From: Bacteroidales bacterium
Lineage (GTDB): Bacteria; Bacteroidota; Bacteroidia; Bacteroidales; WCHB1-69
Reading direction: 5' to 3'
Assembly: GCA_038210985.1 (NCBI GenBank)
Contig: JBBQWB010000004.1
Location: 7,456-71,455, forward strand
DNA: 64,000 nucleotides
The notes below the pieces were generated by a model that had not been told where the DNA came from, did not search any database, and worked only from the letters and a program-made list of their open reading frames with translations. The translations under genes were made by a program, and so were the position numbers. The first letter of the stretch is position 1; each line of letters starts with the position of its first letter. Of this stretch, positions 1 through 35,788 are shown in pieces.

Positions 1-3000
1 TTTGCTCCATAAACAATGTTACTTCCCGAAGTATATGCTGTCCATGAAGTCCAAGTTGTTCCGTTATACGTTCTAGATTCGTAAGTTTCAACACATCCAC
101 TTCCACCCGAACCGGCTGAAATTGTTGCCGAAATTGCAGCTCCTCTACAAACATCCAATTGATTTGGAGTTTTCGTAATTACTGGTGCAATTGGCTGAGG
201 ACTAACTGTCCAAGTATAAATTAATGTATCTGCTGGCGGACATTGACTTCCCGAAATACAGGATGTTCGATATCCTCTAATTTGAACTCCAATTGAGCCC
301 GAAGTGTTAATAACACCGCCAGCACTATAAAATGCCCATGCACTATAACCACTGCCCGAATTAATTCTATATTGTAAAGCATCTGCACATCCACTTCCTC
401 CAGTTCCAGGAGTTTGTATAGTGGCAGACACATTCACTCCTTCGCAAAGTGAAGCTAAATCTGGACTCTTTATTAAAATTGGATTTACTAAATTATTGAT
501 TATAAACCACGATACCGAATTAGTATCAGAAGAAGTACAACCAGATGCTACACTACAATTTGCTCGGTATCCACGTACTTCGACCTGGGTAACACTAGCA
601 CCATAATTAATACTTGCACCCGATGTATAGGAAGCCCAAGTTGACCATGAACCAGCATAAGTTCTAAATTGATAAGTATCCGAACAACCATCGCCACCCG
701 AACCAGGTGTAATGTTTGCTTTTAAGATTGTTCCGCGACAAACATCATCCGTATTTGGATTTCGAACAATTATTGGAGCAACAGGACCAGAAGTAACTGT
801 CCATGAATAAATTGCTGTATCCTGAGCAGGACATTCATCACCAGATGAACAAGCTCCTCTAAATCCACGAATTTGAACCTGAGTATATCCCGAAGTAGGA
901 ATAAAGTTTCCATCAATATAAGTAGCCCAAGCACTAAAACTTGTTCCATCATGAATTCTATATTGTAAAATATCTGAACAACCAACTCCACCCAAACCAG
1001 GTGTTGTAATTGAAGCAGAAACATTTATTCCACCACAAACTGAACTAATATTTGGATTTTTAGTAAGTATTGGATTTACTAAGGATGGATTTAAGTTCCA
1101 TGAAACAACATTCGTATCCGAAGATAAACACCCAGAGCTAAGATCACATCCACCTCGGAATGCCCTAATTTGAACTTGAGTAGTTCCAACTCCGTAGGTA
1201 ACATTTGCACCCGAAGTGTAAGTTATCCAAGCAGACCATGTTGTCCCATTAAATATTCTTGATTGATATGTGTTAGAGCAACCGCTTCCACCACTTCCAG
1301 GAGTTATTGTACCAGATAAAGGCACTCCAAAACATACACTATTTTGATTTGGATTTTTTGTAATAGTTGGAGCTACTGGACCAGTTATTACCGTCCAACT
1401 ATATATTAATGTATCTGCTGGAGGACATTCCTGACCCGAAACACATAAACCATGGATACCTCTTATTTGAACTTGTGTATAACCACTTGTAGAAATTGGA
1501 TTTCCTTCTAAATAATTTGCCCAAGCCGAAAAAACGACACCGTTATTAACTCTGTATTGAAGTATATCGGTACATCCAACTCCGCCTGTTCCTGAACTAA
1601 TTATAGTTGCAGAAACATTATTTCCTTGACAAATAGTTGCTACTGCTGGGTTTTTTAATAGGGTTGGATTGGTTAAACTAGGTGTTATATTCCATAAAGT
1701 TGAAATGGTATCCGAAGCAACATCGCCCGATGAAGGATCGCAGTTTCCACGCCATGCTCTAACTTCAACTTGGGTTGTATTAGCAGGATAAGGAATATTA
1801 ATACCAGAGGTATAGGAAATCCATGCATTCCAAACACCACTTACATAAGTTCTATATTGTGCATATTCTGAGCATGTAACTCCGCCACCATTAGAGGTTA
1901 CTGTTGCTGAAATAGGAATTCCAAAACAAACATCATTATTTGGATTACGAACAATTACTGGATTTTGAGGACCCGAAATTACCAACCAAGAGTATATTGC
2001 GGTGTCGGCTGGTGGGCAAGTACCTCCGCTTGAACAACTTCCTCTGAATCCTCGAACCTGTACTTCCGTTAAACCAGTTGTTGGAATATGATCACCAGCA
2101 ATATAATTTGACCATGCACTGTAAACAGCACCTGTTTTTGTTCTATATTGAAGAAGATCTGAACATCCAACACCTTGACCTCCAGGTGTTGATATAGTTG
2201 CAGAAACTTCTGTTCCATTTACAACACTTATTGAGTTGGGCGTTTTTGCTAAAATAGGATTTACCAAAATTTGATTGATAATCCATGATTTTACAATTGT
2301 ATCCGAAGCTGGACAACCGCCACCACAATTTCCCCTAAATGCTCGAACTTCCACATTAGAAGCATTAGAAGGGTAATTTATATTTTGACCTGTTGAGTAG
2401 TTATACCAAACCGACCACGAAGAACCTGAATAAATTCGATATTGAGAATAGTTTGTACAAGATACTCCTCCTGTACCACTACTTATGGAACCTGAAATTG
2501 CTGTACCATAACACACTTCCGCATGATTAGGAATTTTAGTGATAATTGGATCCGTTGGTGCACTAACTACAACCCATGAAACCTGATTTGTATCGGTTGG
2601 CGTGCAAGCACCACCACCAAAACAATTTCCTCTATATCCCCTAATAATAACACTTGATATACTTGTAGTTGAAATAGCATCACCTGGTATATAAACATTC
2701 CAAGATACACCACCATTAATAGAAAACTCGAGTATGTCTTCACAAGTATTGCCACCTGAACCTGGCACACTAATAGTCGCACTTACATTTGTCCCAGAAC
2801 ATACCTGAGCATAGTTTGGATTTTTAGCAATTGTAGGGTTAATAATGGACGGGTCAATTGTCCATGATACAATATTTGTATCCGAATTACCACAACCCAA
2901 TCCAGTACATGATCTAAAAACTCTAATTTCAACTTCTGTTCTACTTGGTGAAGTAGAAATATTATATCCTAAAGGATAAGTAATCCAGCCACTCCAGCCT

Positions 3001-6000
3001 GTAATTGTGTGATAATAACGATATTGATATACATCATTGCAAGAAGTACCGCCTGAACCAGCTACTATACTAGCTCTAACAGTTGAGCCTTGACAAACAA
3101 TATCAATATCTGGCACTCTAGTAAGTGTTGGTGCAACAATTGAACCCGAAACAGCCCAACTTGCTGAATTTGTATCCGATGAAGGACAGCTATACAAAGG
3201 ATTACAATCTGCTCTAAATGTTCTAATTTTAACAGAAGACAATCCAATGGTGTTGATTAAATCATTTGTGTTATATAAATTCCATGATGCACCTCCATCC
3301 ACAGAATATTCTGCAATATCAGAACAAGCATCGCCCCCAGAACCAGAAATTATGGTTGCCGAAACTTCTGCACCCTGACAAACTGTTGCAACATTTGGAT
3401 TTTTGGTTAAGGTTGGAGAAACCACACTTGGAACAACAATCCACGATACCAGACTTGTATCTGGATCGCAACCAGCTAAAGGATTACAATTATAATTATA
3501 CCCTCTCAACTCTACTTCGTTATATCCTGTAGTAGGAATTTGATATCCGGTTGGATAAAAACCCCAACTCGACCAAATATCAGTAGTTGCATTTTTTCTT
3601 CTGTATTGAAAATAATCAGAACAAGAATAACCTGAACCAGCAACAATAGTAACCGATACATTTTGGTTTGAACAAACATATTCTGAATTTGGAACTTTGG
3701 TTAATTGAGGTGCAACTGGAGCAGGAACAACTGTCCATGAATAAATATTGCCAGTAGATGATCCGCAAACAATTCCCCCAGAGCAATTTGTTCTTGTGGC
3801 TCTAATATCCACAGAGGATGTTGGAAAATCAGTTGTAATAATATCTCCTGGTAAATACATTTGCCACAAGCCACCATTTACTCTAACTTCGTACACATCT
3901 TCGCAACCCGAACCTCCACTACCTAATGTAGCAATTGTGGCATTCAAATCTGTTCCTTGGCATACGGTAGAAATACTTGGATTTCTGGTAAGAGTTGGGT
4001 TAACCACTCCTTGAACTATAGACCATTCTACTAAAGAAGTATCTGTGGATAAACAGCCTGTGCTTGGCGAGCAACCTCTAAATGCACGAACTTGAATTAT
4101 TGTTCTTGGCGAATTCGTATTAATACCCGAGCCCGAAATATACGTAAACCATGATGACCAGGTAGTACCATTATAATATCTATATTGCTTATAATCATTG
4201 CAACTGATGCCACCTGAACCAGTTGTAATTGTAGCACTTACTGAAGTTCCCATACAAACTTCATCTTGATCTGGAATTCTTGTAACGCTTGGAGGAGTGG
4301 CGGAAGCTACAACTGTCCATGAAACCACATTTGGTGCTGGATTGTTGCAATTACCACCTGGAGAACAATTACCTCTATAAGCACGAATTTCTATGGAAGT
4401 AGCACTGGATGCAGGAACCGAACTACCAATAGTATATGGTATCCACGATGACCACGATGAGCCATCGTTAGTTCGGTATTCAAAAACATCAGAACAACCA
4501 ACACCGCCACTTCCAGCAGTATTTATAGTTGCAGACACATTTTCTTCTTGACAAACGGATGTTCTATTTGGATTTTTTGTAATTGTTGGGTTTACAATAT
4601 TTGATGTTACTGTCCATGTTTCAACTAATGTGTCGCTTGTATTACAACCTGCTCCACTTGTACAATTCCCTTTCCATGCCCTAACTTGTATTGATTGACG
4701 TCCGTTAGCTAAAATATTTTGACCTGAAGTATAATTATACCATACCGACCAAGAGCCGCCTGTTAACATGCGGTATTGAGAATAATTTGTACAACCAATT
4801 CCACCTGGACTAGTTGTTATTGTTGCACGAATAGTGTCGTTATTACAAACATTATCTGCCGTTGGGTTTCTTATAATAGTTGGAGGTGTTGGTTGTAATT
4901 CAACTGTCCATGCATAAGTATTAATTAAGGAGTCTCCACAAATACCACCTGGGGCACAATTTCCTCGCCATGCTCTAATTTCTACACCACCTAAACCAAC
5001 GGAAGATATACCAGTACCTGGAACATAGGTTTGCCATGCTGACCATGAACCTGTACTTGTTCGATATTGATAACTATCGCTACAACCAGAACCACCAGAG
5101 CCACTTGTAGCAATAGTTGCCGAAACACTTGTTCCTTGACAAACCGAAGACAAGTTAGGTTGTTTTGTCATTGTTGGGGAAGTAACGGTAAAATTATTAA
5201 CCGTCCATGAATAAACATTTTCTGCAAAACATCCAGAAGCAACATCGCAGCTTCTAAATGCTTTAATTTCAATAGCTGTTCTACCAACTGAACTTATATT
5301 ACTGCCTGGAGTATATGCAAACCATGTTGTCCATGAGCCAGAAGCAAAATATCGATATTGATATACGTCTGCACAACCATCGCCACCCGAACCTGCAACT
5401 AAAACAGTAGCAGAAACTGGATTTCCTGAGCAAACTTCACCTCCAGATGGAGTGGGCGTCATTGTTGCTGCAGATACCGAAGATACTGTCCACGAAGCCA
5501 GTTGAGAAAATGCAGAAGTAGTACAACCACTTCCCAAACTACAATTTCCACGAGCGGCACGAATCAATATAGTAGTTGCTCCAATAGTTGAAATATTTTG
5601 ACCAGAAGTGTAAGAACTCCAAGAGCTACCATTATTTGTACTAAACTCCACTATATCCGAGCATCCTGAACCACCCGTGCCTGAATTTATCGTGGCATTC
5701 ACGTTCACTCCCGTACAAACGGTAGTTAAGTTTGGTGTTTTAGCAAGAAGAGTAGGAGCTACTGGTTGAGAAACAACCGACCACATGGCTGTGTTCCAAT
5801 TACTGAAACATTGTCCATTAGACGACATCTTCCTTGTTCTTATTTGAACTATGTTTGTACCAGTAGCAGTTGTTGTGATTGAACTACCTGGAGCATATGT
5901 ATTCCAAGCAACTCCTCCATTTACAGAATATTCATAGTAATCAACCGCGGTACCACTTGGGTTTGTACCACCCGAAAAAGTTGCACTAATAGTTGCACCC

Positions 6001-7200
6001 TGACAAACAGTGGAACCAGATGAAGGAACTCCTGTTATATTTTTTGAAGTTGGAGCATCATACACATTTACGGTATATTGAGTTCCATCTGCTAAATTAC
6101 AACCTAATGTAGTTGGAATGGCAGTATATTGTGGTCGATAATAATATGTAGTAACAGAGGGTGGAGTATCTGGACTAGTAATAGTAGTACCCGAACCAGA
6201 AAACGACAATGCTCTTACCCAATTTATAACACCACCCAAACCACCATTCACATTCGCACTAAAATTAACTTGACCACCTAAGCACAAAGATGTTGGTGTC
6301 AAAGTAACTCCTGACCATGTAGGATCTGAAATAACAGCTAATTTACTACTTGAACCTGGATTAATATTACAACCAGTGTTTGTTGGATTAGCAACATACG
6401 TAGGATAATAATAGAAAGTTCCAGTAGAATTTGGAGAATTTGGAGAAGTTACTTGACTTCCTCCAACTCCTTCCGTTGTGGATCGATACCAACGTATAAA
6501 ACCACCAACACCTCCTATAAAATCACCTGCTAAATCTACACTTCCACCAATACAAATGGAATCACGTGTAATACTAGTTGTTCCCCATGATGGGTCAGAA
6601 ATAGACTGCCAGCTAACCGAATTTGTATCCGAAGTTTCGCAACCACCACCAGTACATTCACGCCAACTTTCAATAAAAATAACTTGTCCAATATTAATTG
6701 CATCCACCGATGGTCGAGTTGTTAATTTTGCCGACCAGCTTATTCCACCGTCATCCGAATATCTGTAATAATCAACACAAGAACCTTGACCACCAGAACC
6801 TGTTGAATTTGTAGTTGAAACCGTACCACCGATACAAATTTGTGCAGTGTTAGGGCTCTTTATCAGAGGCGGTGCTGTTGGATCGTTATAAACCGCCCAA
6901 TAAACCGATGATGATTGTCCAGAAGTGTCACAACCATATCCACTACAAATTGTACGAGCACGGGCATAATAATTACCTTGTGAATTTGCATAAAAGCTAT
7001 TGTTTGTGTTCCACGAAATTGTATCAAAACTTGAAGTTGAATAACTTGCAGCATATACATAATAACAACTACCAACACCTCCTGTTGAACCCGTAGCAGT
7101 TGGGGTAACATTTGCCCCAATACAAACTGCCGTATTTGGATTTTTTACAATACTTGTAGGAGCAGTTTGCCTAACTGCTACCGCCCAAGTAACTTCAACC
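1..7200 (-). repeat. Array of about 25 divergent tandem coding modules, period about 285-300 nt (~97 aa)
   Basis: A conserved Trp-containing module boundary (plus strand ...GTCCATGA.. / ..CCAAG..) recurs near 205, 505, 798, 1097, 1392, 1690, 1983, 2283, 2573, 2865, 3155, 3440, 3733, 4022, 4315, 4612, 4905, 5203, 5490, 5780, 6605, 6893 and 7183. Copies are diverged, not identical. Confidence 0.8.
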
Positions 7201-7553
7201 CATGCGGATGTATCACAACCAGCTCCCCCGGTGCATGCAATACGAGCTCTAATTCTCATTGTTCCAGCCGAACCTCCTACACTTATGGTACTGCCAACCG
7301 TCATATTTATCCATGAACTGGCTCCAGGTAGCATACGTTGTTGTTCGTATATACACGAACAACTACCACTGGGCAATCCTCCTAAGGTAACTCCAACTAG
7401 AGAGTTAACGCAGACTGAATCATAATTTTGAACTTTTGTAACAATTGGTGGATTTACAGAATACACGTTCAACACTAAAAGCGTGAATAACAAAGTAAAA
7501 CCAGCCTTCCAAGTTAACACATTAACTGAAAACAAAGTAAATATTTTATTCAT
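1..7553 (-). CDS. Giant tandem-repeat secreted/cell-surface protein, N-terminal part (at least 2517 codons). The 3' end lies beyond the left window edge. Absent from the supplied ORF track.
   Basis: ATG at 7553-7551 (reverse complement) gives MNKIFTLFSVNVLTWKAGFTLLFTLLVLNVYSVNPPIVTKVQNYDSVCVNSL..., with a signal-peptide-like hydrophobic stretch. I read the frame by hand from 7553 to about 4890 and re-checked it at 5207, 3740, 2285 and 59-3. It is always the same frame (first codon base = 2 mod 3) and always lands on the conserved module Trp. The track lists no ORF in this frame, as expected for an ORF with no stop inside the window. Confidence 0.85.
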   Translation of the reverse strand, partial: MNKIFTLFSVNVLTWKAGFTLLFTLLVLNVYSVNPPIVTKVQNYDSVCVNSLVGVTLGGLPSGSCSCIYEQQRMLPGASSWINMTVGSTISVGGSAGTMRIRARIACTGGAGCDTSAWVEVTWAVAVRQTAPTSIVKNPNTAVCIGANVTPTATGSTGGVGSCYYVYAASYSTSSFDTISWNTNNSFYANSQGNYYARARTICSGYGCDTSGQSSSVYWAVYNDPTAPPLIKSPNTAQICIGGTVSTTNSTGSGGQGSCVDYYRYSDDGGISWSAKLTTRPSVDAINIGQVIFIESWRECTGGGCETSDTNSVSWQSISDPSWGTTSITRDSICIGGSVDLAGDFIGGVGGFIRWYRSTTEGVGGSQVTSPNSPNSTGTFYYYPTYVANPTNTGCNINPGSSSKLAVISDPTWSGVTLTPTSLCLGGQVNFSANVNGGLGGVINWVRALSFSGSGTTITSPDTPPSVTTYYYRPQYTAIPTTLGCNLADGTQYTVNVYDAPTSKNITGVPSSGSTVCQGATISATFSGGTNPSGTAVDYYEYSVNGGVAWNTYAPGSSITTTATGTNIVQIRTRKMSSNGQCFSNWNTAMWSVVSQPVAPTLLAKTPNLTTVCTGVNVNATINSGTGGSGCSDIVEFSTNNGSSWSSYTSGQNISTIGATTILIRAARGNCSLGSGCTTSAFSQLASWTVSSVSAATMTPTPSGGEVCSGNPVSATVLVAGSGGDGCADVYQYRYFASGSWTTWFAYTPGSNISSVGRTAIEIKAFRSCDVASGCFAENVYSWTVNNFTVTSPTMTKQPNLSSVCQGTSVSATIATSGSGGSGCSDSYQYRTSTGSWSAWQTYVPGTGISSVGLGGVEIRAWRGNCAPGGICGDSLINTYAWTVELQPTPPTIIRNPTADNVCNNDTIRATITTSPGGIGCTNYSQYRMLTGGSWSVWYNYTSGQNILANGRQSIQVRAWKGNCTSGAGCNTSDTLVETWTVTSNIVNPTITKNPNRTSVCQEENVSATINTAGSGGVGCSDVFEYRTNDGSSWSSWIPYTIGSSVPASSATSIEIRAYRGNCSPGGNCNNPAPNVVSWTVVASATPPSVTRIPDQDEVCMGTSVSATITTGSGGISCNDYKQYRYYNGTTWSSWFTYISGSGINTNSPRTIIQVRAFRGCSPSTGCLSTDTSLVEWSIVQGVVNPTLTRNPSISTVCQGTDLNATIATLGSGGSGCEDVYEVRVNGGLWQMYLPGDIITTDFPTSSVDIRATRTNCSGGIVCGSSTGNIYSWTVVPAPVAPQLTKVPNSEYVCSNQNVSVTIVAGSGYSCSDYFQYRRKNATTDIWSSWGFYPTGYQIPTTGYNEVELRGYNYNCNPLAGCDPDTSLVSWIVVPSVVSPTLTKNPNVATVCQGAEVSATIISGSGGDACSDIAEYSVDGGASWNLYNTNDLINTIGLSSVKIRTFRADCNPLYSCPSSDTNSASWAVSGSIVAPTLTRVPDIDIVCQGSTVRASIVAGSGGTSCNDVYQYRYYHTITGWSGWITYPLGYNISTSPSRTEVEIRVFRSCTGLGCGNSDTNIVSWTIDPSIINPTIAKNPNYAQVCSGTNVSATISVPGSGGNTCEDILEFSINGGVSWNVYIPGDAISTTSISSVIIRGYRGNCFGGGACTPTDTNQVSWVVVSAPTDPIITKIPNHAEVCYGTAISGSISSGTGGVSCTNYSQYRIYSGSSWSVWYNYSTGQNINYPSNASNVEVRAFRGNCGGGCPASDTIVKSWIINQILVNPILAKTPNSISVVNGTEVSATISTPGGQGVGCSDLLQYRTKTGAVYSAWSNYIAGDHIPTTGLTEVQVRGFRGSCSSGGTCPPADTAIYSWLVISGPQNPVIVRNPNNDVCFGIPISATVTSNGGGVTCSEYAQYRTYVSGVWNAWISYTSGINIPYPANTTQVEVRAWRGNCDPSSGDVASDTISTLWNITPSLTNPTLLKNPAVATICQGNNVSATIISSGTGGVGCTDILQYRVNNGVVFSAWANYLEGNPISTSGYTQVQIRGIHGLCVSGQECPPADTLIYSWTVITGPVAPTITKNPNQNSVCFGVPLSGTITPGSGGSGCSNTYQSRIFNGTTWSAWITYTSGANVTYGVGTTQVQIRAFRGGCDLSSGCLSSDTNVVSWNLNPSLVNPILTKNPNISSVCGGINVSASITTPGLGGVGCSDILQYRIHDGTSFSAWATYIDGNFIPTSGYTQVQIRGFRGACSSGDECPAQDTAIYSWTVTSGPVAPIIVRNPNTDDVCRGTILKANITPGSGGDGCSDTYQFRTYAGSWSTWASYTSGASINYGASVTQVEVRGYRANCSVASGCTSSDTNSVSWFIINNLVNPILIKSPDLASLCEGVNVSATIQTPGTGGSGCADALQYRINSGSGYSAWAFYSAGGVINTSGSIGVQIRGYRTSCISGSQCPPADTLIYTWTVSPQPIAPVITKTPNQLDVCRGAAISATISAGSGGSGCVETYESRTYNGTTWTSWTAYTSGSNIVYGA

Positions 7554-7623
7554 AGTACAAGAATTTCGAATTTAAAAAAACTGCTCAAAGCCTATAATAT
7601 ATTTATACTAATATAACAATCTT

Positions 7624-7631
7624 CAAAAGTA
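7624..7631 (-). promoter_or_regulatory. Candidate Bacteroidota sigma-A -7 box (TACTTTTG) for the giant gene
   Basis: The reverse complement of CAAAAGTA matches TAnnTTTG, 71 nt upstream of the ATG at 7553. Confidence 0.35.
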
Positions 7632-7820
7632 AAAAAAAAAACTAACATATACAAGATTCTTTAACAACATAAAAACCTCACTCAAATCTCATGCTTTTTT
7701 GCTTTAATGGCAAATATTTAATACTCATTTTTATGAAAAAAAGTTTCTGTAAAACCCATTATAATAAAATAGACAATGATTTTTTTTAATTAGATGCCTG
7801 ATTTTTTGTTTTAAATTATA

Positions 7821-7854
7821 AAACTCTTGATTATCTGATATTTACACAAGAGTT
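7821..7854. other. Stem-loop (AAACTCTTG ... CAAGAGTT) in the divergent intergenic region
   Basis: 8-9 bp inverted repeat with a 17-nt loop, read directly. Confidence 0.4.
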
Positions 7855-7864
7855 GAAAACAGAT

Positions 7865-7908
7865 AAAAACTGGTTATTAACCGTTTTTTGTTAATAACCA
7901 GTTTTTTT
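7865..7908. other. Terminator-like hairpin flanked by an A-run and a T-run, upstream of the rplU promoter
   Basis: AACTGGTTATTAA (7868-7880) pairs perfectly with TTAATAACCAGTT (7891-7903). AAAAA precedes it and TTTTTTT follows it. No gene ends here on either strand. Confidence 0.45.
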
Positions 7909-7941
7909 ATGACATAATGATAAACTTTCAAAAAAAAAGTT

Positions 7942-7949
7942 TACTTTTG
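7942..7949 (+). promoter_or_regulatory. Candidate -7 box TACTTTTG for rplU-rpmA
   Basis: Matches the Bacteroidota consensus TAnnTTTG, 46 nt upstream of the rplU ATG. Confidence 0.45.
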
Positions 7950-7994
7950 CAGTTCTGAAAAAAAAGAATATTAACAAATCTAAAAATTAAACGG

Positions 7995-8306
7995 ATGTAC
8001 GCAATTGTAGAAATCGCCGGACAACAATTTAAAGTTGTCAAAGATCAGCAGATTTTCGTTCATCGTTTGCAAGCCGAAGAAGGCGCAAATGTTGAATTTG
8101 AAAAAGTTATGCTGACCGATAACGAAGGCAAAATTAGTATCGGAACACCCCTCGTACAAGGTGCCAAAGTTTCCGCGACAATCTTAAATCACCTAAGAGC
8201 AGACAAAGTTCTTGTTTTTAAGAAAAAACGCAGAAAAGGGTATCAAAAAATGAATGGGCATCGTCAGTATTTAACCAAGTTAAAAATCGACGAAATAGTA
8301 TTTTAA
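7995..8306 (+). CDS. rplU: 50S ribosomal protein L21
   Basis: [14 protein letters not shown]... is a typical L21 N-terminus; 103 aa; followed by rpmA. Confidence 0.95.
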
Positions 8307-8337
8307 ATTAATTTGAATCGAATAAAATTTATCAATT

Positions 8338-8601
8338 ATGGCACATAAAAAAGGTGTAGGTAGTTCAAATAACGGTCGCGAATCACATAGCAAGCGTTTG
8401 GGCGTTAAATTGTTTGGCGGACAAATCGCTACTGCCGGTAATATCATCGTTCGCCAAAGAGGTACTTTGCACAATCCTGGCGAAAATGTCGGATTAGGAA
8501 AAGATCATACTCTTTATGCTCTTATTGACGGAACTGTTGTATTTAGAAAGAAAAAAGATGGAAAATCTTTTGTAACCGTTAAGTCAATCGAACAAAATTA
8601 A
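8338..8601 (+). CDS. rpmA: 50S ribosomal protein L27
   Basis: [27 protein letters not shown] is the L27 signature; 87 aa. Confidence 0.95.
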
Positions 8602-13400: not shown

Positions 13401-14480
13401 TTATATATACTCGCTAGCTTCTATTTCACCATTAAGAATAAGATGTCCATTCATTGCTAGGGCTCTCATTTCGTCTTCGCCTGGATAAACCAAAACTGGA
13501 GCTAAAAATTCGACACGTTCCTTTACTTTTGCAACAAAAGGTTTTCCGTATGCAATACCACCGGTAAGTAGAATTGCATCTATTTTTCCTTTTAAAACAC
13601 TTGCCATTGCACCAATTTCTTTTGCAACTTGGTATGCCATTGCCGATTCCATTAATTCGGCTTTTTCGTCGCCAGCAGCAGCACGTTTTTCAACTTCGTA
13701 GGCATCGTTGGTTCCCAAATAAGCAACAAAACCACCTTTTCCTGTAATCATTTTCTTTACTTCGTCGTACGTGTATTTTCCACTAAAACAAAGTTTGGCA
13801 AGTTGACCAACTGGTAAAGTTCCACTACGTTCGGGACTAAATGGACCTTCGCCATCTAATGCTTGGTTCACATCTATTACTTTTCCTTTACAATGAGCAC
13901 CAATACTTATACCTCCACCAAGATGAACTACAATAAGGTTTAATTCTTCATATTTTTTGTTTGCATCCTTTGCGTATGTACGAGCAATTGCTTTTTGGTT
14001 CAGTGCATGAAAAATAGATACACGTTCAAAAAGCGGATGACCTGAAATTCTGGCTATGTCGTCTAACTCATCCACCACCACTGGGTCGGCAATAAATGCA
14101 CGCGAGCCAATAATTGATTTTGCAATGTCATTGGCAATTAACCCACCCAAATTGCTTGCATGTTCCCCGTTAATTCCAGCTTTTAAATCAGCCATCATAG
14201 ATTCGTTAACCGAATATACACCCGAAGGAATAAATTTGACTAAACCACCTCGTCCAACAATAATTTTCAACGATTGCAACTCTATATTATTTGCTTTGAG
14301 TTCTTCTAAAATGATGTTTTTACGAAACTCATACTGGTCGGTAATTTTTGCAAAAGGTGCTAGTTCTTCGGAAGTATGTTTAATGTTTTTAACAAAGATC
14401 TGTTCTTCACCGGCAAAAACAGCGATTTTAGTCGATGTTGAACCTGGGTTTATAGCTAAAATTAATTGATTTTGCGTCAT
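13401..14480 (-). CDS. buk: Butyrate kinase
   Basis: ILAINPGSTSTKIAVF is an ASKHA N-terminus; 359 aa; downstream of ptb in a typical ptb-buk pair. Confidence 0.9.
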   Translation of the reverse strand: MTQNQLILAINPGSTSTKIAVFAGEEQIFVKNIKHTSEELAPFAKITDQYEFRKNIILEELKANNIELQSLKIIVGRGGLVKFIPSGVYSVNESMMADLKAGINGEHASNLGGLIANDIAKSIIGSRAFIADPVVVDELDDIARISGHPLFERVSIFHALNQKAIARTYAKDANKKYEELNLIVVHLGGGISIGAHCKGKVIDVNQALDGEGPFSPERSGTLPVGQLAKLCFSGKYTYDEVKKMITGKGGFVAYLGTNDAYEVEKRAAAGDEKAELMESAMAYQVAKEIGAMASVLKGKIDAILLTGGIAYGKPFVAKVKERVEFLAPVLVYPGEDEMRALAMNGHLILNGEIEASEYI

Positions 14481-14509
14481 GTTTATGATTTATGTTGTTT
14501 TGTTAAATA

Positions 14510-15412
14510 CTATGCCAGTGCAGCTGCTAGTGCAATTGAATATAATTTTGTTTTGGCAGAATCTCCCCTGGAAGATAATACGCATGGAACCTTGGCTCCC
14601 ATTACATTTGCAGCAATTTCGGCTTGATTAAATTTGGTGCAAGCTTTATAAAATACATTTCCACTTTCGATATTTGGAAATAGTAAACAATCTGCATCCC
14701 CTGCAACTGGTCCTGTAAGTTTTTTTGTTTCGGCACTCTCTTTATCTATTGCACCATCTAACGCTAAAGGTCCATCTATAAAAGCTCCTTTAATTTGTCC
14801 TCTGTCTGCCATTTTTGATAATATTGCGGCATCTACACAAGCTTGCATGCCAAGCGAAACTTGCTCGGTTGCTGCTATTAATGCAATTTTAGGTTTTTCA
14901 ATTCCAATGGCTTGAGCTGTTTTAATTAAAAAATTCAGAATTATTCCTTTTTGTTTTAAATCCGGGTCTGGAATAATTGCACAATCACTAGCTATTAATA
15001 ATTTATGATAAGATGGATTTTCCACCACAGCAACATGAGTTAAAACTGCTTTCGCATCCATTAAACCTTTTTCCTTATCTAAAATTGCCCTCATGTATTT
15101 ATCTGTACTTACCGAACCCTTCATTAAAATATCCCCTTCTCCATCGTTGATAAGTTTTACAGCCAACCTTGTAGCTTTCATTTCATCCGATTCCTGTGCA
15201 GTTTTAAATTTGCCAGCGTCAATTTTAAGTTCAGCACAAATTTTTATTATTGTTTGGGTGTCGCCTGTTAAAATGGCATCCACTATTCCCTTATCCACCG
15301 CTTCATTAACAGCCTCAATTGTGTGAGCATCATTTGCATATGCTACAACCAATCGTTTTTTTCCTTTTGTTTTTACTAGTTCAACAATTTGATCAAGTTT
15401 TGTTATTCCCAT
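14510..15412 (-). CDS. ptb: Phosphate butyryltransferase
   Basis: 300 aa; KRLVVAYANDAHTIEAVNEAVDKGIVDAILTGD is typical of the Ptb/Pta-like family; adjacent to buk. Confidence 0.85.
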   Translation of the reverse strand: MGITKLDQIVELVKTKGKKRLVVAYANDAHTIEAVNEAVDKGIVDAILTGDTQTIIKICAELKIDAGKFKTAQESDEMKATRLAVKLINDGEGDILMKGSVSTDKYMRAILDKEKGLMDAKAVLTHVAVVENPSYHKLLIASDCAIIPDPDLKQKGIILNFLIKTAQAIGIEKPKIALIAATEQVSLGMQACVDAAILSKMADRGQIKGAFIDGPLALDGAIDKESAETKKLTGPVAGDADCLLFPNIESGNVFYKACTKFNQAEIAANVMGAKVPCVLSSRGDSAKTKLYSIALAAALA

Positions 15413-18054: not shown

Positions 18055-20685
18055 CTAATCAATAGATTGATTGATTGAAAAATGGAATTGACCTTTGTTT
18101 GCTCCTGGAATACCTGGAACCGCATCAAACCCATAACCCCAATCTAATCCAAGAACGCCGAACATAGGCAAAAACACACGAACACCAAAACCTGCCGATT
18201 TATACATTTTAAAAGGGCTGAATTGATTAAACGACGACCATGTATTTCCCGATTCAACAAAACTTAATAAATAAATTGTAGCCGAAGGATTCAACGAAAC
18301 AGGATAGCGAATTTCGGCAGTGTATTTTGTAAATATTGAAGCTCCAACATAACCACTTGGTCCTGCTGGGGTTAATGTATTATTTCCGTATCCACGCATT
18401 CCTATTAACTCACGACCATCCAGTGCAAAACCCGATAAACCATCTCCACCTAAATAAAATCGTTCAAAAGGTGAAATTCCAATATTAGAATTATACGTTC
18501 CTAAATATCCAAAACGGAATCGTAAACTTGCCACAAAATTATCTACTATGTTAGAGTACCAAGATGCATTGAACTTCCATTTATGATATTCTAACCATCT
18601 GTATTTATCTTGGTCGGTAAGAGTTGAATAATCATCAATGTTTTTTAACAACGAATAAGGTGGTGTAAGTTGCAACGACAATCCAATTTCGGAACCTTTA
18701 CGAGGGAAAATTGGAGCATCAATCGAATTTCTACTTAATGAAATAGTATAGCTTACATTGTTTGAGTATCCATTGCTAAAACTAAAAATAGAAGTATAAT
18801 TATTTAGCACATAATTTTGAAAACTTACACCTTGACTTAAAATAAAGAAATCATCGGGCCATTTTAAACGCTGAGCCAAACTAAATGAAACTCCGTTAAT
18901 ATCAATAGACTGTCTTTTATCATCGGTGCGTTTTAGTCCATTACTTTGAACTGAATGATACGCTGAAACACTAAAGGCATTTGGTTTTTTTCCACCAAGC
19001 CAAGGTTCGGTAAAGGAAACACTATACGATTGATACCAAGCACCATTTGACTGTGCACGGAAACTAACTTTTTGTCCGTCGCCAGTTGGAATTGGACGCC
19101 ATGCACCTTTTTTAAACAACTTTTTGCTCGAAAAATTATTAAAGGAAACGCCAATTGTTCCAACAACCATTCCTGCACCCCAACCTCCAGAAAGCTCTAG
19201 TTGGTCGGAGGATGTTTCTTCCACGGTATATTCAATATCAACGGTTCCATCTATTGGATTTGGTTTGGGATTAATACCAATAGTTTCCTGATTAAAATAT
19301 CGGAGCTGAGCCATTTCACGTTGCGAACGTATGATGTCGGCACGACTAAATAATTCGCCAGGAATTGTTCTTAATTCACGAATAATAACATGGTCGTTGG
19401 TGCGGGTGTTTCCAACAATTGTAATTTTATTAATTCGAGCTTGTTTGCCTTCATTAATTCGGATATCAATGTCGATAGAATCGTTTTCGACATTCACTTC
19501 AACAGGATTTGCCGAAAAAAACAGATATCCATCATCGAGATATAGAGAATACACATCGGAACCACTTGCATTATACATTAAATTTGATTCCATTGTTTTA
19601 TGGTCGTAAACATCTCCTTTTTTAATTGCTAAAATTTGGGTTAAATATTCGTCGGTATATTTTGTATTTCCAACCCAATTAATATTACGGAAGTAAAATT
19701 TATTTCCTTCTTCTACTTTAATACCAATATTCATCGATTTATTTGAAACTTTATAAAAAGTATCTGAAATAATTCGAGCGTCGCGATAACCTTTTGAGTT
19801 GTAATAAGTCATTAAAGCTCTTTTATCCGACTCATAATCTTCCATAATAAATTTTGAAGATTTAAAAATTCGGAGTTTAACACGTTCCGAAAAATAGTCA
19901 ACAAAAATATCTGATAATTCTTGTTTACGATATTCGCTATAATTTTTAACTACATGAACTAAAAATGTATCAATTTTTTCGAGAGGGAAAAACCTTAGCT
20001 GTTCTTTGGTTTCTTTAAACGAGCTAATTAATTTTGATTTTGGGATTCCATTATTTCCTTCGAAATAAATTTCGTTGATTTTTATTTTTTTATTTTTCGT
20101 AACAGTTATAAGTAAAGCTAAGCTGTTTGCCATGCTTGTATCTACTTCTTGACGGATGTTTACACCCACATTAAAAAACCCTTTATTGCGAAAGCGTTTT
20201 AAAATCAAATTTTTTGTATTAACAATTAAATGCTCTGTAACCACATCGCCACGATTTAGCTTAATATCTTCTCTAATTTCATCGGCTTCGGTTTTTCGAA
20301 CTCCAACAATTGAGAATCGAGATAATCGTGGGCGTTCGACAAGAAAAAATTCGATAAAAATCAAATTTCCTTCAATTTTAGTTACCGATACGCTAATATC
20401 ATCAAACAAATCCTGACTCCATAGTTTTTGAATTGCATCCGAAATTTTTTCGCCAGGGATACGAATTTTATCGCCAACCGATATTCCAGTAAGGGCAATA
20501 ATTGAATTGTGATCATAATATTTAACACCACTAACCGTAATTCCACCTATTTCGTAGTCTTTAGGATTAGTGTAATCAATATTTATTTCATCCGAAGCAC
20601 CTATTTGAATTTGGGCAAATGAAAATTGTGGAATTATAAGAAAAAAATAGAAAGGAAGAAGTAGCGGTAATAATTTGATTTTCAT
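18055..20685 (-). CDS. bamA: Outer membrane protein assembly factor BamA
   Basis: POTRA-like repeats followed by a C-terminal Omp85 barrel (...GLDWGYGF...QFHFSI). I place the start at ATG 20685 (MKIKLLPLLLPFYFF signal peptide). The track's longer N-terminus overlaps the uppS coding region. Confidence 0.9.
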   Translation of the reverse strand: MKIKLLPLLLPFYFFLIIPQFSFAQIQIGASDEINIDYTNPKDYEIGGITVSGVKYYDHNSIIALTGISVGDKIRIPGEKISDAIQKLWSQDLFDDISVSVTKIEGNLIFIEFFLVERPRLSRFSIVGVRKTEADEIREDIKLNRGDVVTEHLIVNTKNLILKRFRNKGFFNVGVNIRQEVDTSMANSLALLITVTKNKKIKINEIYFEGNNGIPKSKLISSFKETKEQLRFFPLEKIDTFLVHVVKNYSEYRKQELSDIFVDYFSERVKLRIFKSSKFIMEDYESDKRALMTYYNSKGYRDARIISDTFYKVSNKSMNIGIKVEEGNKFYFRNINWVGNTKYTDEYLTQILAIKKGDVYDHKTMESNLMYNASGSDVYSLYLDDGYLFFSANPVEVNVENDSIDIDIRINEGKQARINKITIVGNTRTNDHVIIRELRTIPGELFSRADIIRSQREMAQLRYFNQETIGINPKPNPIDGTVDIEYTVEETSSDQLELSGGWGAGMVVGTIGVSFNNFSSKKLFKKGAWRPIPTGDGQKVSFRAQSNGAWYQSYSVSFTEPWLGGKKPNAFSVSAYHSVQSNGLKRTDDKRQSIDINGVSFSLAQRLKWPDDFFILSQGVSFQNYVLNNYTSIFSFSNGYSNNVSYTISLSRNSIDAPIFPRKGSEIGLSLQLTPPYSLLKNIDDYSTLTDQDKYRWLEYHKWKFNASWYSNIVDNFVASLRFRFGYLGTYNSNIGISPFERFYLGGDGLSGFALDGRELIGMRGYGNNTLTPAGPSGYVGASIFTKYTAEIRYPVSLNPSATIYLLSFVESGNTWSSFNQFSPFKMYKSAGFGVRVFLPMFGVLGLDWGYGFDAVPGIPGANKGQFHFSINQSID

Positions 20686-20725
20686 AGTTAATGGGTTTCG
20701 CATATCAATCCGCAAATGTATTAAA

Positions 20726-21475
20726 TTATTGTTTATCTTGAATTTGTTTGCTAGTTTTTCCAAATCGGCGTTCACGGTGTTGAAAATCGAAAATAGTTTC
20801 AAATAAAGTTTCTTTATTAAAATCGGGCCAAAGCGTTGGAATAAACGCAAACTCGCTGTATGAAGCCTGCCACATCAAAAAGTTACTTAGACGACTTTCG
20901 CCACTTGTACGAATTATCAACTCAGGGTCGGGCATAAAAGAGGTAGAAAGGTTCTCGGTAATCGTTTTTTCGGTAATATTTTCGGCTTCTATTTCACGAT
21001 TTTTAACTTTTTCGGAAATAGATTTCACCGCTTCGGTTATTTCCCATCTCGAACTATAACTTAAGGCAATTACAACCGTTAATCCATTATTGTTTTTTGA
21101 TCGTTCAATTATATTAAGCAATTGATTCAGCGTGTTTTTATGTAAGCGATTTATATCTCCAATTGTCTTTATGCAGATATTGTTTTTAATAAGGTCATTA
21201 GATTCTTTTTCGATAGACTCAACCATTAGTTCCATTAGCATATCTACCTCTTCTTTTGGACGATTCCAGTTTTCGGTTGAAAATGCATATAATGTTAAAA
21301 ATTTAACGCCTATTTCAGCAGAGCCTTCAATTACAGCCCGAACAGACTCAACACCTTGCTGATGACCAAAAGTGCGATGTAGTCCTCTTTGTTCAGCCCA
21401 TCTTCCATTACCATCCATTATAATAGCAATATGTTGGGGTGTTTTATTTTTGTCGATTTTTTCTTTAAAACTCAT
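20726..21475 (-). CDS. uppS: Isoprenyl transferase (undecaprenyl-diphosphate synthase)
   Basis: [22 protein letters not shown] and RTSGE.RLSNF motifs. Confidence 0.93.
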
Positions 21476-21510: not shown

Positions 21511-22347
21511 TTACCTTTTTTTACCAACGCTTTTGGATTTATAGGTTGATTTTTGATAAGCACCACAACTTTTAGCACCTTCAAAAATCTTATATGTAAG
21601 CCATAAACCAGTAAAGTTGTACCAATCTTTAGTTTGAGAGTTACCTCTGGCACTTCCTTCGATATGTTTTACATCGCTAGGGTCGGCAATTTGTGCAACT
21701 TTTGGAGAACATTGATCATTATCAGCATACGTTCCACCAATATCGTCGATATAGTCTGTCCATGTTTTACGCATACCCCATTCTAATCCAAGCGAAAAGT
21801 TTCTCAAAAAATTAACTTTAAATCCAATTCCAAAAGGCATACTTACACTAGTTAAAGAGTAATAATCTTTTTTTGGATATTTTTCCAAACCCTGACCTTC
21901 GGTGCCCAATGGTTGTAAATCGTACCAATGATTATCGAGTTGAGATTGTGGATTAAACGAAAAGGCAGAAACACCCACAAACATGTATGGTGAAAAGAAG
22001 TTTTTACCTTTTTGGGTGTATAAATTAAAGAAATTAAATTCTGCTTGAGCCGAAATTTCGGAAATTGGAGAACGGAAGCTTAAATTTCGATCGTTATTGT
22101 AGTTTGTTACCTTATCGCTTGCTTCTAATTGACCAAATAATGCACTCACTTTTAAAGCCCATCGGGAATTAAAATTATAACGATAAATAATACCGCCAGC
22201 TGAATTTGTATTTGTAAAATGTTTTGCGGGGTTTAAGTCGCCAATATAATAAGCTGTACCGACAAAAATGCCCAACTCTGAACGCTGAGCATTCGTAATA
22301 TTACCTGTTAAAAGAAATATTACAAGGAGCCAAAAAATCTTTTTCAT
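21511..22347 (-). CDS. DUF6089-type outer-membrane beta-barrel protein
   Basis: Signal peptide; ELGIFVGTAYYIGDLNP and LQPLGTEGQG; sits in the conserved position next to uppS. Confidence 0.65.
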   Translation of the reverse strand: MKKIFWLLVIFLLTGNITNAQRSELGIFVGTAYYIGDLNPAKHFTNTNSAGGIIYRYNFNSRWALKVSALFGQLEASDKVTNYNNDRNLSFRSPISEISAQAEFNFFNLYTQKGKNFFSPYMFVGVSAFSFNPQSQLDNHWYDLQPLGTEGQGLEKYPKKDYYSLTSVSMPFGIGFKVNFLRNFSLGLEWGMRKTWTDYIDDIGGTYADNDQCSPKVAQIADPSDVKHIEGSARGNSQTKDWYNFTGLWLTYKIFEGAKSCGAYQKSTYKSKSVGKKR

Positions 22348-22368: not shown

Positions 22369-23280
22369 CTAATATTGGAACGAACAAATGTTGGTAGTTG
22401 TTTTAAAGAGGTTAATATAAAGAGTAAATTGTGCAAACATATACGAGTCGTAATTTGATGGATTTCCTCTTTGATTACCTGGACGAGTTGAATAAGCAGC
22501 AATTGGATCGGTTAAATCGGCTGGATTAGAAAAATATGCAGCAACATCTCCTTTTACGCTACGAATTTTATTCACATCAAAATAAGTAGTACTAACATCA
22601 TCCATATAATCCGAATTAGTCCAACGCATTCCATATTCGAATCCCAAGCTGTATCTTCTGTTTATATCATATTTAAGACCAACTCCGTAAGGGATAGTAA
22701 GTGCAAATTTAGAGTATGGTTTTCTGGTTTCCACTAAACCTTGTCCTTCGGTACCTAAAGGTTGAAGTGCTACCCACGAACCATCTGTATATTTTCCTTT
22801 AGGATTTGTATAAGCTCCTCCAACACCCGCAAAAACGTAACTTGTAATTGGCACTCGGTTGGTTTTACGACGTCCCCATTGTTTACCAACATTTTGCATG
22901 GTTAAATAAAACTCGGCTTGACCCGAAACCTCCACTAAAATAGAGCGAAAATGTAAATTACGAACATTTCGGTTAATTTGTTTTGTCCAAACATCATCTC
23001 CACCAATCCATCCAAAATAACCATTTGCTTTTAAGTTTAAACGTTCCAAAAGTCGATAGCTATAACCAACTCCCATAATAGCTCGAGTAGATTGGATATC
23101 AAAATCTTTTAACCCAAACGAACCAATATCTTTTGAACCACCTAAGTCACCTAAAAAGTTAGAACCACCTAAATGAACAGTTATAAATGACCGGTTTTTT
23201 TTCCATCTTTGTGCATTTGCCTGATTGTAAAATCCTAACACAAAAACTATTAGTATCGTTATTCTAAGCCAATTTTTCAT
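22369..23280 (-). CDS. DUF6089-type outer-membrane beta-barrel protein (tandem paralog)
   Basis: Shares GGSNFLGDLGG, LQPLGTEGQG and W(T)(D/N)(S)DY(I/M)DD blocks with 21511-22347. Confidence 0.65.
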   Translation of the reverse strand: MKNWLRITILIVFVLGFYNQANAQRWKKNRSFITVHLGGSNFLGDLGGSKDIGSFGLKDFDIQSTRAIMGVGYSYRLLERLNLKANGYFGWIGGDDVWTKQINRNVRNLHFRSILVEVSGQAEFYLTMQNVGKQWGRRKTNRVPITSYVFAGVGGAYTNPKGKYTDGSWVALQPLGTEGQGLVETRKPYSKFALTIPYGVGLKYDINRRYSLGFEYGMRWTNSDYMDDVSTTYFDVNKIRSVKGDVAAYFSNPADLTDPIAAYSTRPGNQRGNPSNYDSYMFAQFTLYINLFKTTTNICSFQY

Positions 23281-29116: not shown

Positions 29117-32100
29117 TTATCTAATTATTACCATTTTACCGAACTCTTTTACAAAATATTTTGAGGCTCCCGTGCTTTTCTTTTCAATTTGTTCACCCTG
29201 AATATTTGTCATTATTCTGTACAAATATACACCATTTGCTAATTGGTCGCCAAAATTATCTTTGCCATCCCAAGCATAATCGGTAATATTACGACCAATA
29301 TGAATACTTCCAAGTTCTGAAAGGTCGATTTCACGAACTAACTTTCCCGAAATGGTCATAATTTGAATTTTAAAATAGGTAGGAATTTCGGAACCTGTTA
29401 ACGTAAAAACAAATCGGGTAGAACTAGAAAATGGATTAGGCCAATTCATTACTTCGGTTATGGTTGATTTGTTTATTATCTCGAACGAAATAGTGTATTT
29501 GTTATTTCCAGATAAATTTCCCGACTTATCCATGCCTTCAACCATCATTTTATATATGCCATCCACAGTAAAAGAAGCGTTGTAAAGAATATGAGATTTG
29601 TTTTTATTATTTGCAGGGATAAATTGCATTATAGTTCTAAATCCATCGTAAAAAGGTATCCTTTTATATTCGGTTTCGCCTGGAGCCATTATTTGAACTC
29701 TAAACAATGAGGTGTCTTGAATACTATTTAAAAGCAAATATTGATTTTCATCTTTTAATGTAATTTGTATCTGTGGTTTTGCCGAAACAATATCATTGTT
29801 TAAAATATGAACTCCATCAAAAGTTACGTCCATAACTGGATTTATTCGATCGGGGTTTACACTAAAATAAAATTCAGCAATATTATTAAAATGGTACATT
29901 TCAACCTGATCATTGTTCGGGTTAAATTCTACTTGTAAAGTATTATAGCCCGATAAATCGATGGATGACATTGCCACAGTTGCCGTAAGAACATCTCCTA
30001 CTGGGTGCAATCGAAGTCGTTTGTAAATTATACGAATAGGAACGTTTTCTTTAATAATTCTGAAAACAACTAATAAACTATCCATGTTCGACAAGCCAAT
30101 GTTTTGGGTAGAAATGGATAATTTTACCGAATCTCCTTGATTGACATCATCTCCCGAATAACTAAAAGCAACGCTTGGATTAATTGCCGTTTCGGGAGCT
30201 GGATCATACACCACATGCCACCTTATTAGCTGAGTTGGAGTAGTGTGGATATTATCTTTTGAAAATAATTTTAGCTTTAAATATGGAAATTGATGAACGT
30301 CAATTCTTTGGTTAAGATTATACAAATCCAAAGTGTCGGTAGTAAGTTTTTCAATAAGAATAGTTTCTTCACCAAAGTTATTAATTCCGATAACTCTTAG
30401 TGATATCTCATCGGTGTTTGGATTTTCGAGGCTTTGAGACCGCCAGTGAAGGCTTCCCCAGCTTAAAGCAGGTCCAACAATTTCGGAAGTTATACTACCT
30501 TCGTCCCAATTTGTAGAATATTGAGCATTAATATGGATAATTTGAGTTTCGTTTGCGGCAACTGCTTCAACTACATTTGGATCGCCAATTGGAATTCCTT
30601 TTCTACCAAAAACTATATATGGATTATTCCAGTGCAAGTTGCGAATTTGAGAACTACCAAACGATTCAAATGCCTGATACAAAGCTTCGGGATATGTATC
30701 TGCATAATGGTTTCGATGGCTCATTGCCAACACATAATATCCATTTGGAATAGAGTTTATATAACTCAAAATACTGTCTTTATTAGCAGGCGTTACGGCT
30801 TGAAAATCGGCAGCTGGAACAGGATATGTTTTACAAATTGCTTGTCCTCTAAGCCCAATACTGTCGGGATTCATCCAAAAATCTCCAGAAATCGGATTAA
30901 TTACGGCAATTTTCATCCCATTTCCCGTATTGCTTAAGCACGACCACTGATCCTGAACCAAACCATTAACTCTAAACCAAATTTCGGTCCATGGCATTCC
31001 ATAGCCAAAATAACCAGTTTGAGCCGTTAGAGCTTTAATGTCTTGAGCAAATTCAAATTTACGTTGTGGCTTGTTATATTTAACAAATTGGTAATCATCG
31101 TTTTTAAATTGAAAAAAGTGAGCCTGTCCCCAACCACGTTTACCTATTATATATTGAAAAGAACTTTCGCGCCAATTATTTGTACCCGTTTTTTCTACTC
31201 TCCAATAATACACCGTTGAATCTGTTAATAAAAATGGCAACGACCATTCCACAATTCCACCCGATGATTGAACCGAAAACTGTTGTTTAAAAGGACTATT
31301 AAAAGCATCGGTTGTATCTATCTCGAAAGAGTAATTGCCTGAAGTTGTAAAAACAGTTCCTGTAGATGCTTTTAAAATGGTTTGAGCATCCGGAATTACC
31401 GCATATTTGTATGGATAAACTGGAATAATATCCGAAGATGAAATTAAAAATTGAACACTTACAATATTGTTATTTTCGCTGTATTCGTCCACTTCATTAT
31501 AATCGTCTAATGAAACTCGCAGTGTATTGTTTCCGATGCCATTTAATCTATCCACAGGAAGTTTAAAAATTATTGTATCGCTAGATAAAGGAGCTTTAAT
31601 TCGCAACAAGGTGTCTTTAGTAATATTGTTCGGAAACATTCGTGTTATTTTAACCAATATTGAATCGTTAATGGCACGAGCAATATTTCGACAAAGAATA
31701 CGAACATAAAAACTATCAATTTCGGTGGTTATATTTGATGGATTAAATAAAATATTATTTGGTTCGATAATATAATCAGGTTTTTCAAACGAATTTAGAA
31801 CAATTGCAGGGTCGCCATGATAGGTCATGTCTAAGCTGGTTTCTTTAATCCACACCAAAGGTTCAAGATTTTTAATGGTTTGTTGAATAATATAACCTAA
31901 CGGTTTACCATAGCATAAATATCCAAAATTTCGATAAAACATGTTTGCATAATTATTCATATAAATATCACTACCCGAGCTAACCGAAGCCAAATAAGCA
32001 ATAGTTCCTTTGTTGGCTATTAAAACAAATTCCTCACTGCTACTTCCTCTATCATAATTTACGCCCGAAGTAAAAAGGTCGCCAGCAAAACACGAAAGTC

Positions 32101-35290: not shown

Positions 35291-35788
35291 TCAGTTATTT
35301 AGTGTTTGTTCGGGGTCAATTTTATTGAAAATTGGCTTATTGATTGCTCTTTTCTTTTGAAAAAAAGTTTTAATCAATAAGCTACATTCTTTTTTCAGGA
35401 CACCTTCACGCACAATTGTTTTAGGATGAAGCATTTCGGGATTAATCATACGATATCCTCGTTTGGTGTCGGAAGTTGCAAAAATCAATTCGGATACTTG
35501 CGCCCAATGTATTGCTCCTGCACACATTGGACAAGGCTCAAGGGTAACATATAACTTACAATCGACCAAATATTTACCACCCAATGTGTTTGCTGCCGAA
35601 GTAATTGCTTGCATTTCGGCATGAGCCGTTACATCGTTTAAACATTCGGTTAAATTGTGCGTGCGAGCAATAATTCGATTGTTGTGAACGATAACGCAAC
35701 CAACTGGAACCTCATCTTTTTCAAAAGCCTTAACTGCTTCTTTAAGAGCCTCGTTCATAAAATACTCTTCGGAGAATATGGTTATCAT
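35291..35788 (-). CDS. tadA: tRNA adenosine(34) deaminase
   Basis: HAEMQAI and PCPMCAGA zinc motifs; 165 aa. Confidence 0.9.
   Translation of the reverse strand: MITIFSEEYFMNEALKEAVKAFEKDEVPVGCVIVHNNRIIARTHNLTECLNDVTAHAEMQAITSAANTLGGKYLVDCKLYVTLEPCPMCAGAIHWAQVSELIFATSDTKRGYRMINPEMLHPKTIVREGVLKKECSLLIKTFFQKKRAINKPIFNKIDPEQTLNN

Follow-up and report, generated by a model that had tools for sequence, protein, structure and literature searches.

The 5' part of a giant tandem-module gene in a Bacteroidales contig, probably encoding a type IX-secreted surface protein

We analysed a stretch of 64,000 nucleotides from a Bacteroidales bacterium (contig JBBQWB010000004.1, positions 7,456 to 71,455, forward strand), referred to below as the window, whose first 7.5 kb are filled by the 5' part of a giant gene lying on the minus strand (3-7553). 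Translation of this strand from the ATG at 7553 down to position 3 gave 2517 codons with no stop. The open reading frames (ORFs) listed within the span are of 60-96 amino acids (aa) only, and the giant frame is missing from the list because the lister drops ORFs running off the source. The original prediction, made from the sequence, had claimed both an unlisted giant minus-strand ORF from ATG 7553 and this explanation for its omission. Both claims hold, and when we looked for an in-frame stop or a frameshift between 7553 and 1, as it had proposed, none was found over the 2517 codons. More generally, the case shows that a caller requiring both start and stop loses sight of the largest genes where a window or contig ends.

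From the base composition of the strand, the probability of a stop is 0.067 per codon, that is about one stop expected per 15 codons, and the probability of 2517 open codons is therefore about 1.6e-76. The other five frames of the same region contain 117-186 stops each, with a longest open stretch of 119 aa. The GC content of the giant frame by codon position is 42/58/19%, with 58% at the second and 19% at the third position, a clear coding signature, and the region as a whole reaches 39% GC versus 34% for the window. As an in-frame TAA is located 7 codons upstream, the ATG at 7553 is the first possible start. Together with the colinearity with the ortholog P0047 described below, these results indicate that the giant gene is real, that its 5' end lies inside the window with a complete N-terminus, and that its C-terminus lies off the window. 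The portion seen here is probably 35-40% of a gene of 19-22 kb, a size probably reached in a small-genome, anaerobe-like Bacteroidota, and the full-length protein probably counts 6000-7500 aa.

At its N-terminus, the protein has a predicted Sec signal peptide (MNKIFTLFSVNVLTWKAGFTLLFTLLVLNVYS, aa 1-31; 7461-7553, minus strand), as read from the sequence: Lys3 and Lys16 precede a 14-residue hydrophobic core, and module 1 follows directly. The same signal-peptide-like layout was observed in the orthologs L002 and P0047. A predicted N-terminal Sec signal peptide is one of the features expected of type B cargo of the T9SS (type IX secretion system). Upstream, between the giant gene and the divergent rplU-rpmA genes (7995-8601, plus strand), lies a spacer of 440 bp and 22% GC (7554-7994). 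Two minus-strand matches to the pattern TAnnTTTG are present in this spacer, at 7631-7624 and 7982-7975; the first (TACTTTTG, 7624-7631), 71 nt upstream of the ATG, is a candidate Bacteroidota -7 promoter element, to be read as a pattern match and not as a functional assignment.

After the signal peptide, the protein consists of 26 modules of 90-99 aa (~97 aa), the last of which, M26, is cut by the window edge. We built a profile hidden Markov model (HMM) from the modules themselves and then ran it on the window protein: 24 of the 26 modules were matched (E 2e-18 to 5e-42), M04 and M05 being left unmatched. By type, there are 23 4-Cys modules, a single 2-Cys variant (M06) and two modules, M04 and M05, that are weakly PF19081-like. 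In the alignment, the near-invariant positions are P4, P11, C17, G32, C35, W49, R69, C75, C81 and W92. The array opens with M01-M03 (6603-7460, minus strand), divergent N-terminal copies of the ~97-aa module delimited by segmentation (module HMM E 2e-18 to 4e-27). They are followed by M04-M05 (6054-6602, minus strand; aa 318-500), two copies of a different, 2-Cys repeat of ~90 aa on which the module HMM is silent and whose motif is DPxW..ICxGG.V.F.A..GG.GG.I.W.R...VTSP..P..GTYYYRP.Y...GCN. M04 scored 21.4 bits (E 3e-4) against PF19081 (Ig_7), over profile positions 6-73 of 84 and below the cut-off of 27.3, and the M04-M05 pair is found at the same position in the orthologs L002, L003 and P0047. 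M06 (5766-6053, minus strand; module HMM E 8e-23) is the variant that keeps Cys1 and Cys4, as seen in its sequence and in the cysteine census given below. Finally, M07-M26 (3-5765, minus strand; HMM E 1e-32 to 5e-42) are 4-Cys modules forming an alternating A/B super-repeat, as determined by lag analysis and from alignment A1: the mean identity between modules is 0.49 at lag 2 versus 0.40 at lag 1, and the higher identity at even lags therefore reveals a two-module super-period. Identity between modules ranges from 22 to 63% at the protein level, and Tandem Repeats Finder run on window 1-7600 detected no DNA-level repeat, the repeats being visible in the protein only.

We then compared the gene with its relatives. 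Two of them, 56-65% identical, came from a scan of genome contigs, and in both the gene runs off the contig: L001, a 6.4-kb contig lying wholly inside the gene and carrying 22 modules, and L002, open over at least 3749 aa with 36 modules. A fragment covering the N-terminus and 81% identical (P0009) led to a long-read contig, L003/L004, where L21 and L27 adjoin the gene start, as in the window, and where the module array extends over ~19.8 kb. On this contig (L004 1285-23579; ENA ERZ21831265 ctg74162l), frameshifts break the gene up into 14 or more calls while the module array is continuous. The frameshifts are probably long-read (homopolymer) errors, and such splitting shows how genes of this kind vanish from protein catalogues. 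The final 2766-aa piece of the L004 gene carries Ig_3, Ig_7, PKD_4 and SprB repeats together with a precomputed CHU_C match.

The top match of the module profile (alignment A2) is P0047, an intact protein of 6310 aa with 55 module stretches. Residues 1-2515 of the window protein are colinear with its residues 5-2515, at 56.9% identity. Since orthologous positions are 57% identical versus ~40% for neighbouring modules, the array is old, position-specific and not homogenised; its repeats are individually conserved, in contrast to the near-identical copies of a recent amplification. The tail of P0047 is composed of Ig-like, PKD and SprB repeats, and its last 86 aa match the T9SS type B sorting domain TIGR04131 with 76.3 bits (cut-off 35). 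At its locus, L005, a gene encoding a 325-aa PorP/SprF protein starts 48 bp after the P0047 stop (TIGR03519, 244 bits; PF11751, 233 bits). It is followed on the plus strand (L005 30034-33039) by the gene of an Ig_3/I-set protein with no NCBIfam match, of which 1002 aa are encoded before the contig ends; this protein may be a second cargo or an accessory protein. An off-window sorting signal of T9SS or CHU_C type, as had been suggested, is seen in the orthologs (TIGR04131 in P0047 and precomputed CHU_C in L004) and is predicted from them for this genome.

To place the module among known families, the whole 2517-aa protein was compared with Pfam and NCBIfam, and no match above threshold was obtained. 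When 23 single modules were scanned at E<=10, only scattered sub-threshold matches appeared, namely CHB_HEX_C, BNR and Reelin subrepeat-B, each in 2 of the 23, and a profile search of PDB sequences with the module gave nothing below E 0.7. An AlphaFold2 model computed from A2, an alignment of 45 module sequences, predicted an all-beta domain with six beta strands (pLDDT 93.5, pTM 0.84). Foldseek found no PDB structure matching this model with E<0.001; the nearest folds are the immunoglobulin (Ig)-like sandwiches of CEACAM5 (8bw0_C, TMq 0.54, prob 0.99), IgLON5 and complement C5 MG4, further ones being RhoGDI and a GH3 Fn3-like domain. According to the model, the module would thus be generically Ig-like, with no close relative among solved or catalogued domains.

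Two catalogued families deserve a closer comparison. The canonical module did not match PF19081 (Ig_7, gathering threshold 27.3 bits), either at E<=1 with the whole protein or at E<=10 with the 23 modules. Both have in common an N-terminal motif P..VC.G..V....GG.G and a late GC motif, and the repeats co-occur in giant T9SS proteins, in which M04 and M05 represent sub-threshold Ig_7; however, the module is ~15 residues longer and has an extra Cys2-Cys3 pair and an IRA.R motif. As for PF03174 (CHB_HEX_C), the mid-module stretch ..EYSTDGGxxW..Y..G..I... is weakly similar to profile positions 37-70, but ~30 residues only are aligned, the giant gene has no enzyme context and the scores stay under the cut-off of 23.6 bits (17.3 bits for the whole protein; best single-module E 0.0047).

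A remote relationship was looked for by profile-profile comparison, with one iteration round and exclusion of overlaps. The module aligned with the M04 type at E 2.6e-4 (probability 42%) and, over 31 columns, with another repeat, the YQWQ type, at E 1.1e-5, the M04 and YQWQ types aligning with each other at E 2e-11. These values suggest a remote kinship of the module with Bacteroidota Ig-like repeats of the same proteins, probable rather than demonstrated. A comparison iterated over three rounds was discarded, as the M04-type and YQWQ-type profiles drifted into each other as well as into the module, their size rising from 52 to 1522 sequences. The seed repeats of the latter type had first been taken as Ig_7; they are not PF19081, giving only weak PKD_5 or SprB matches, and for this reason the set is named YQWQ-type repeat only. 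Precomputed 'faint' matches to PF26114 (Ig_2_Mok13) did not reappear when the local Pfam copy was used and were treated as uninformative.

With these data, the remaining claims of the original prediction can be assessed. Its module consensus and four conserved cysteines were reproduced by the alignment, and its statement that the module could not be placed in a named family agrees with the searches of the whole protein and of the 23 modules. The description of a protein built from ~97-aa 4-Cys modules is right for the main type but not for M04 and M05, which belong to another 2-Cys repeat, nor for the 2-Cys variant M06. Likewise, the exclusion of SprB repeat, cadherin, PKD and FN3 is valid for the module, whereas repeats of the PKD, Ig_3, Ig_7 and SprB kinds are present in the ortholog tail. 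The proposal of a tandem-module surface protein is upheld in the form of a tandem-module secreted or surface protein, whose signal-peptide-like N-terminus is kept in orthologs.

To look at the cysteines, we made a census of 948 complete modules from 175 proteins. The patterns C--C and CCCC were found in 479 and 427 modules, respectively, while Cys2 occurs without Cys3 in 3 modules and Cys3 without Cys2 in 11. Such covariation suggests that Cys1 and Cys4 form the core disulfide and that a second one, Cys2-Cys3, is optional, and it provides a directly testable disulfide map. From the sequence and its comparison with orthologs, one adjacent pair, M19-M20 (1680-2267, minus strand), shows complementary losses, M19 being devoid of Cys1 and M20 of Cys4. 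In P0047, L002 and L001, the same pair is located at the equivalent place of the array; it is also present in the fragments P0012 and P0072, P0051 having a 2-Cys analogue. The orphan cysteines of M19 and M20 could form an inter-module bond and, if true, such a Cys4(i)-Cys1(i+1) bond would act as a covalent staple or a hinge in the fibre.

When the A2 profile was run against 1.84 billion representatives, 1366 proteins were retrieved at E<=1e-3, and 666 at 1e-10. The module is thus an undescribed family of ~1,366 clusters, absent from the domain libraries searched, and the array length of 55-66 copies seen in orthologs is extreme. In public records, the proteins of the family are named 'hypothetical' or 'gliding motility-associated-like'. 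While unnamed in domain libraries, the repeat is present in ~1,400 protein clusters. Almost all of these are giant T9SS cargo, and a Pfam or NCBIfam model made from A2 would annotate them. The tail classes of family members were assigned by motif regular expressions and not by HMM, and the counts are therefore approximate: of 172 proteins with modules, ~65 have a type A-like motif at their end versus 7 with a type B-like one, and among the proteins whose tail could be classified, most of those with high copy number (>=15 modules) are type B-like. The type A ending Por_Secre_tail was confirmed in P0013, P0014, P0020 and P0024. The combined proposal, in which an undescribed Ig-like family, its domains held by a single intradomain disulfide or by two, occurs solely in the T9SS cargo of Bacteroidota and related bacteria, reaches arrays of 55-66 in this orthogroup and also makes the Cys4(i)-Cys1(i+1) inter-module swap at one conserved position, is a tentative one, to which we give somewhat less than even odds.

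T9SS genes were also detected in the window, all on the minus strand. PorG (21511-22347) scored 182.9 bits, above cut-off, and a PorG paralog (22369-23280) scored 95.6 bits, below it. A 1669-aa protein with a C25 peptidase and an ILEI-like domain, named 'putative T9SS sortase PorU2' in NCBIfam, is encoded at 29117-34126 (734.6 bits) next to the 370-aa PorV2 (34139-35251, 518 bits); the two adjacent genes look like a second, little-studied PorU/PorV-like pair. Two proteins with a type A C-terminal domain (CTD), each with a Por_Secre_tail end, lie further on: a 1340-aa BNR/Sortilin-type repeat protein (35785-39807) and a 612-aa delta-60 repeat protein (44270-46108). T9SS machinery, a further feature expected around type B cargo, is hence present in the same genome, and the host is a T9SS-bearing Bacteroidota.

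Type B cargo depends on a cognate protein of PorP/SprF-like type, whose gene usually lies directly downstream, and stays bound to this protein at the cell surface, SprB-SprF being the paradigm (PMC9143113, PMC12618676). We propose, with a probability of about 0.78, that the giant gene encodes a surface fibre or adhesin of this type, exported by Sec and then by the T9SS. A giant T9SS type B surface protein is a known kind of protein; its repeat module is uncatalogued. The Sec signal peptide would bring the protein to the periplasm, and its body would consist of dozens of Ig-like beta-sandwich modules of ~97 aa strung one after another, each locked by the core Cys1-Cys4 disulfide and most of them also by Cys2-Cys3. 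The off-window C-terminus, with Ig-like, PKD and SprB repeats and a type B domain, would direct export by the T9SS, and a PorP/SprF-family outer-membrane protein, encoded just downstream, would take the giant protein from the translocon and hold it on the surface. The resulting fibre would be thin, resistant to proteases and ~0.2 micrometre long, at ~4 nm per module, and would act as an adhesin. It would represent, beyond the Flavobacterium model, a candidate type B fibre of the 200-nm class that has a SprF-like partner of its own.

While the ORF, the module architecture and fold class, the cysteine covariation, the T9SS genes of the window and the ortholog ends and sprF-like neighbour were observed, we infer that the window gene ends as its orthologs do, how its disulfides pair, how long the fibre is and that it serves in adhesion. 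Several points weigh against the proposal. The main uncertainty is that in this genome the C-terminus lies off the window, the type B domain and sprF-like partner being predicted from orthologs that are 57-81% identical. In addition, the L004 ortholog, with its 14 or more gene calls, may, though less probably, have undergone pseudogenisation there, and most shorter module-bearing proteins (1-11 modules) end in type A domains.

The giant protein resembles SprB of Flavobacterium johnsoniae, the T9SS type B gliding adhesin partnered by SprF, in being a giant (probably >6000 aa) repetitive surface protein and, judging from the orthologs, in having a type B domain, a few adjoining SprB repeats and a PorP/SprF-family gene immediately downstream. 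It could then be a functional equivalent of SprB, a mobile adhesin propelled along the surface on a gliding-motility track and not a static fibre. At the ortholog locus, moreover, the gene after the sprF-like gene is that of the Ig_3 protein and not a PorE-like (OmpA) gene. An arrangement devoid of the PorE-like gene is tied to dynamic, not static, type B cargo (PMC12618676). By comparison, such a gene (TPR/PD40/OmpA) does follow that of P0054, a module-bearing type B protein of 6508 aa. However, the body of the giant protein is made of the uncatalogued ~97-aa, Cys-bearing Ig-like module, with no PF13573 SprB repeats in its 2517 aa, and the ortholog has only two of them, beside the CTD. No sprC or sprD was found upstream, where rplU and rpmA are located instead, as in L003, and the window ORFs that were scanned included no gld gene. 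The host appears to be of a Bacteroidales-like lineage with 34% GC; its nearest relatives are metagenome-assembled genomes labelled Bacteroidales or Bacteroidota. A mobile, SprB-like role is on this evidence unlikely.

Another proposal is that the modules are glycan-binding units, making the protein a scaffold for the capture of polysaccharides or particles and not a generic adhesin. The second half of the module shows a weak, recurrent likeness to CHB_HEX_C, scoring 13-18 bits in the window protein, whereas the summed scores in the homologs P0014 and P0024 go as high as 40 bits. Nevertheless, all single-module matches are below the 23.6-bit cut-off, no carbohydrate-binding module family was matched, and CHB_HEX_C is itself a generic Ig-like accessory domain without a defined binding function, so that we consider glycan capture quite improbable. 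Very improbable, too, for the giant protein is the fate of a T9SS type A cargo, with cleavage by PorU and covalent attachment to anionic lipopolysaccharide, as in most shorter module-bearing proteins. The prevalence of type A-like tails in the family, as well as PorU2 and PorV2 in the window, would fit such a fate, but both orthologs with visible ends have type B domains, a PorP/SprF gene lies downstream in the ortholog, and the classifiable high-copy proteins mostly resemble type B. Finally, a decaying pseudogene or a repeat assembly artefact, which the fragmented L004 ortholog and the frequent breaking of assemblies by giant repeat genes (as at the cut ends of L001 and L002) might evoke, is effectively refuted for the window portion by the stop-free frame with its strong codon-position bias, by modules too diverged to mis-assemble and by module-by-module colinearity with the intact 6310-aa ortholog throughout.

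Giant tandem Ig-like repeat adhesins are found elsewhere, for instance those of the RTX/BIg-repeat kind, in which a long rod of Ig-like beads projects a distal region. A surface fibre of the type proposed here would have this design principle in common with them, while differing in export and stabilization: type I secretion and Ca2+ in the RTX/BIg-repeat adhesins, versus the T9SS and disulfides in the giant protein.

Two further observations were made in the window. The tandem PorG-like genes adjoin uppS (20726-21475) and the gene of a BamA-like POTRA protein (18055-20850). On the minus strand at 13401-15412, an acetate/butyrate-kinase-like gene adjoins a phosphate acetyl/butyryl-transferase gene, a pair consistent with a fermentative, anaerobic lifestyle of the host.

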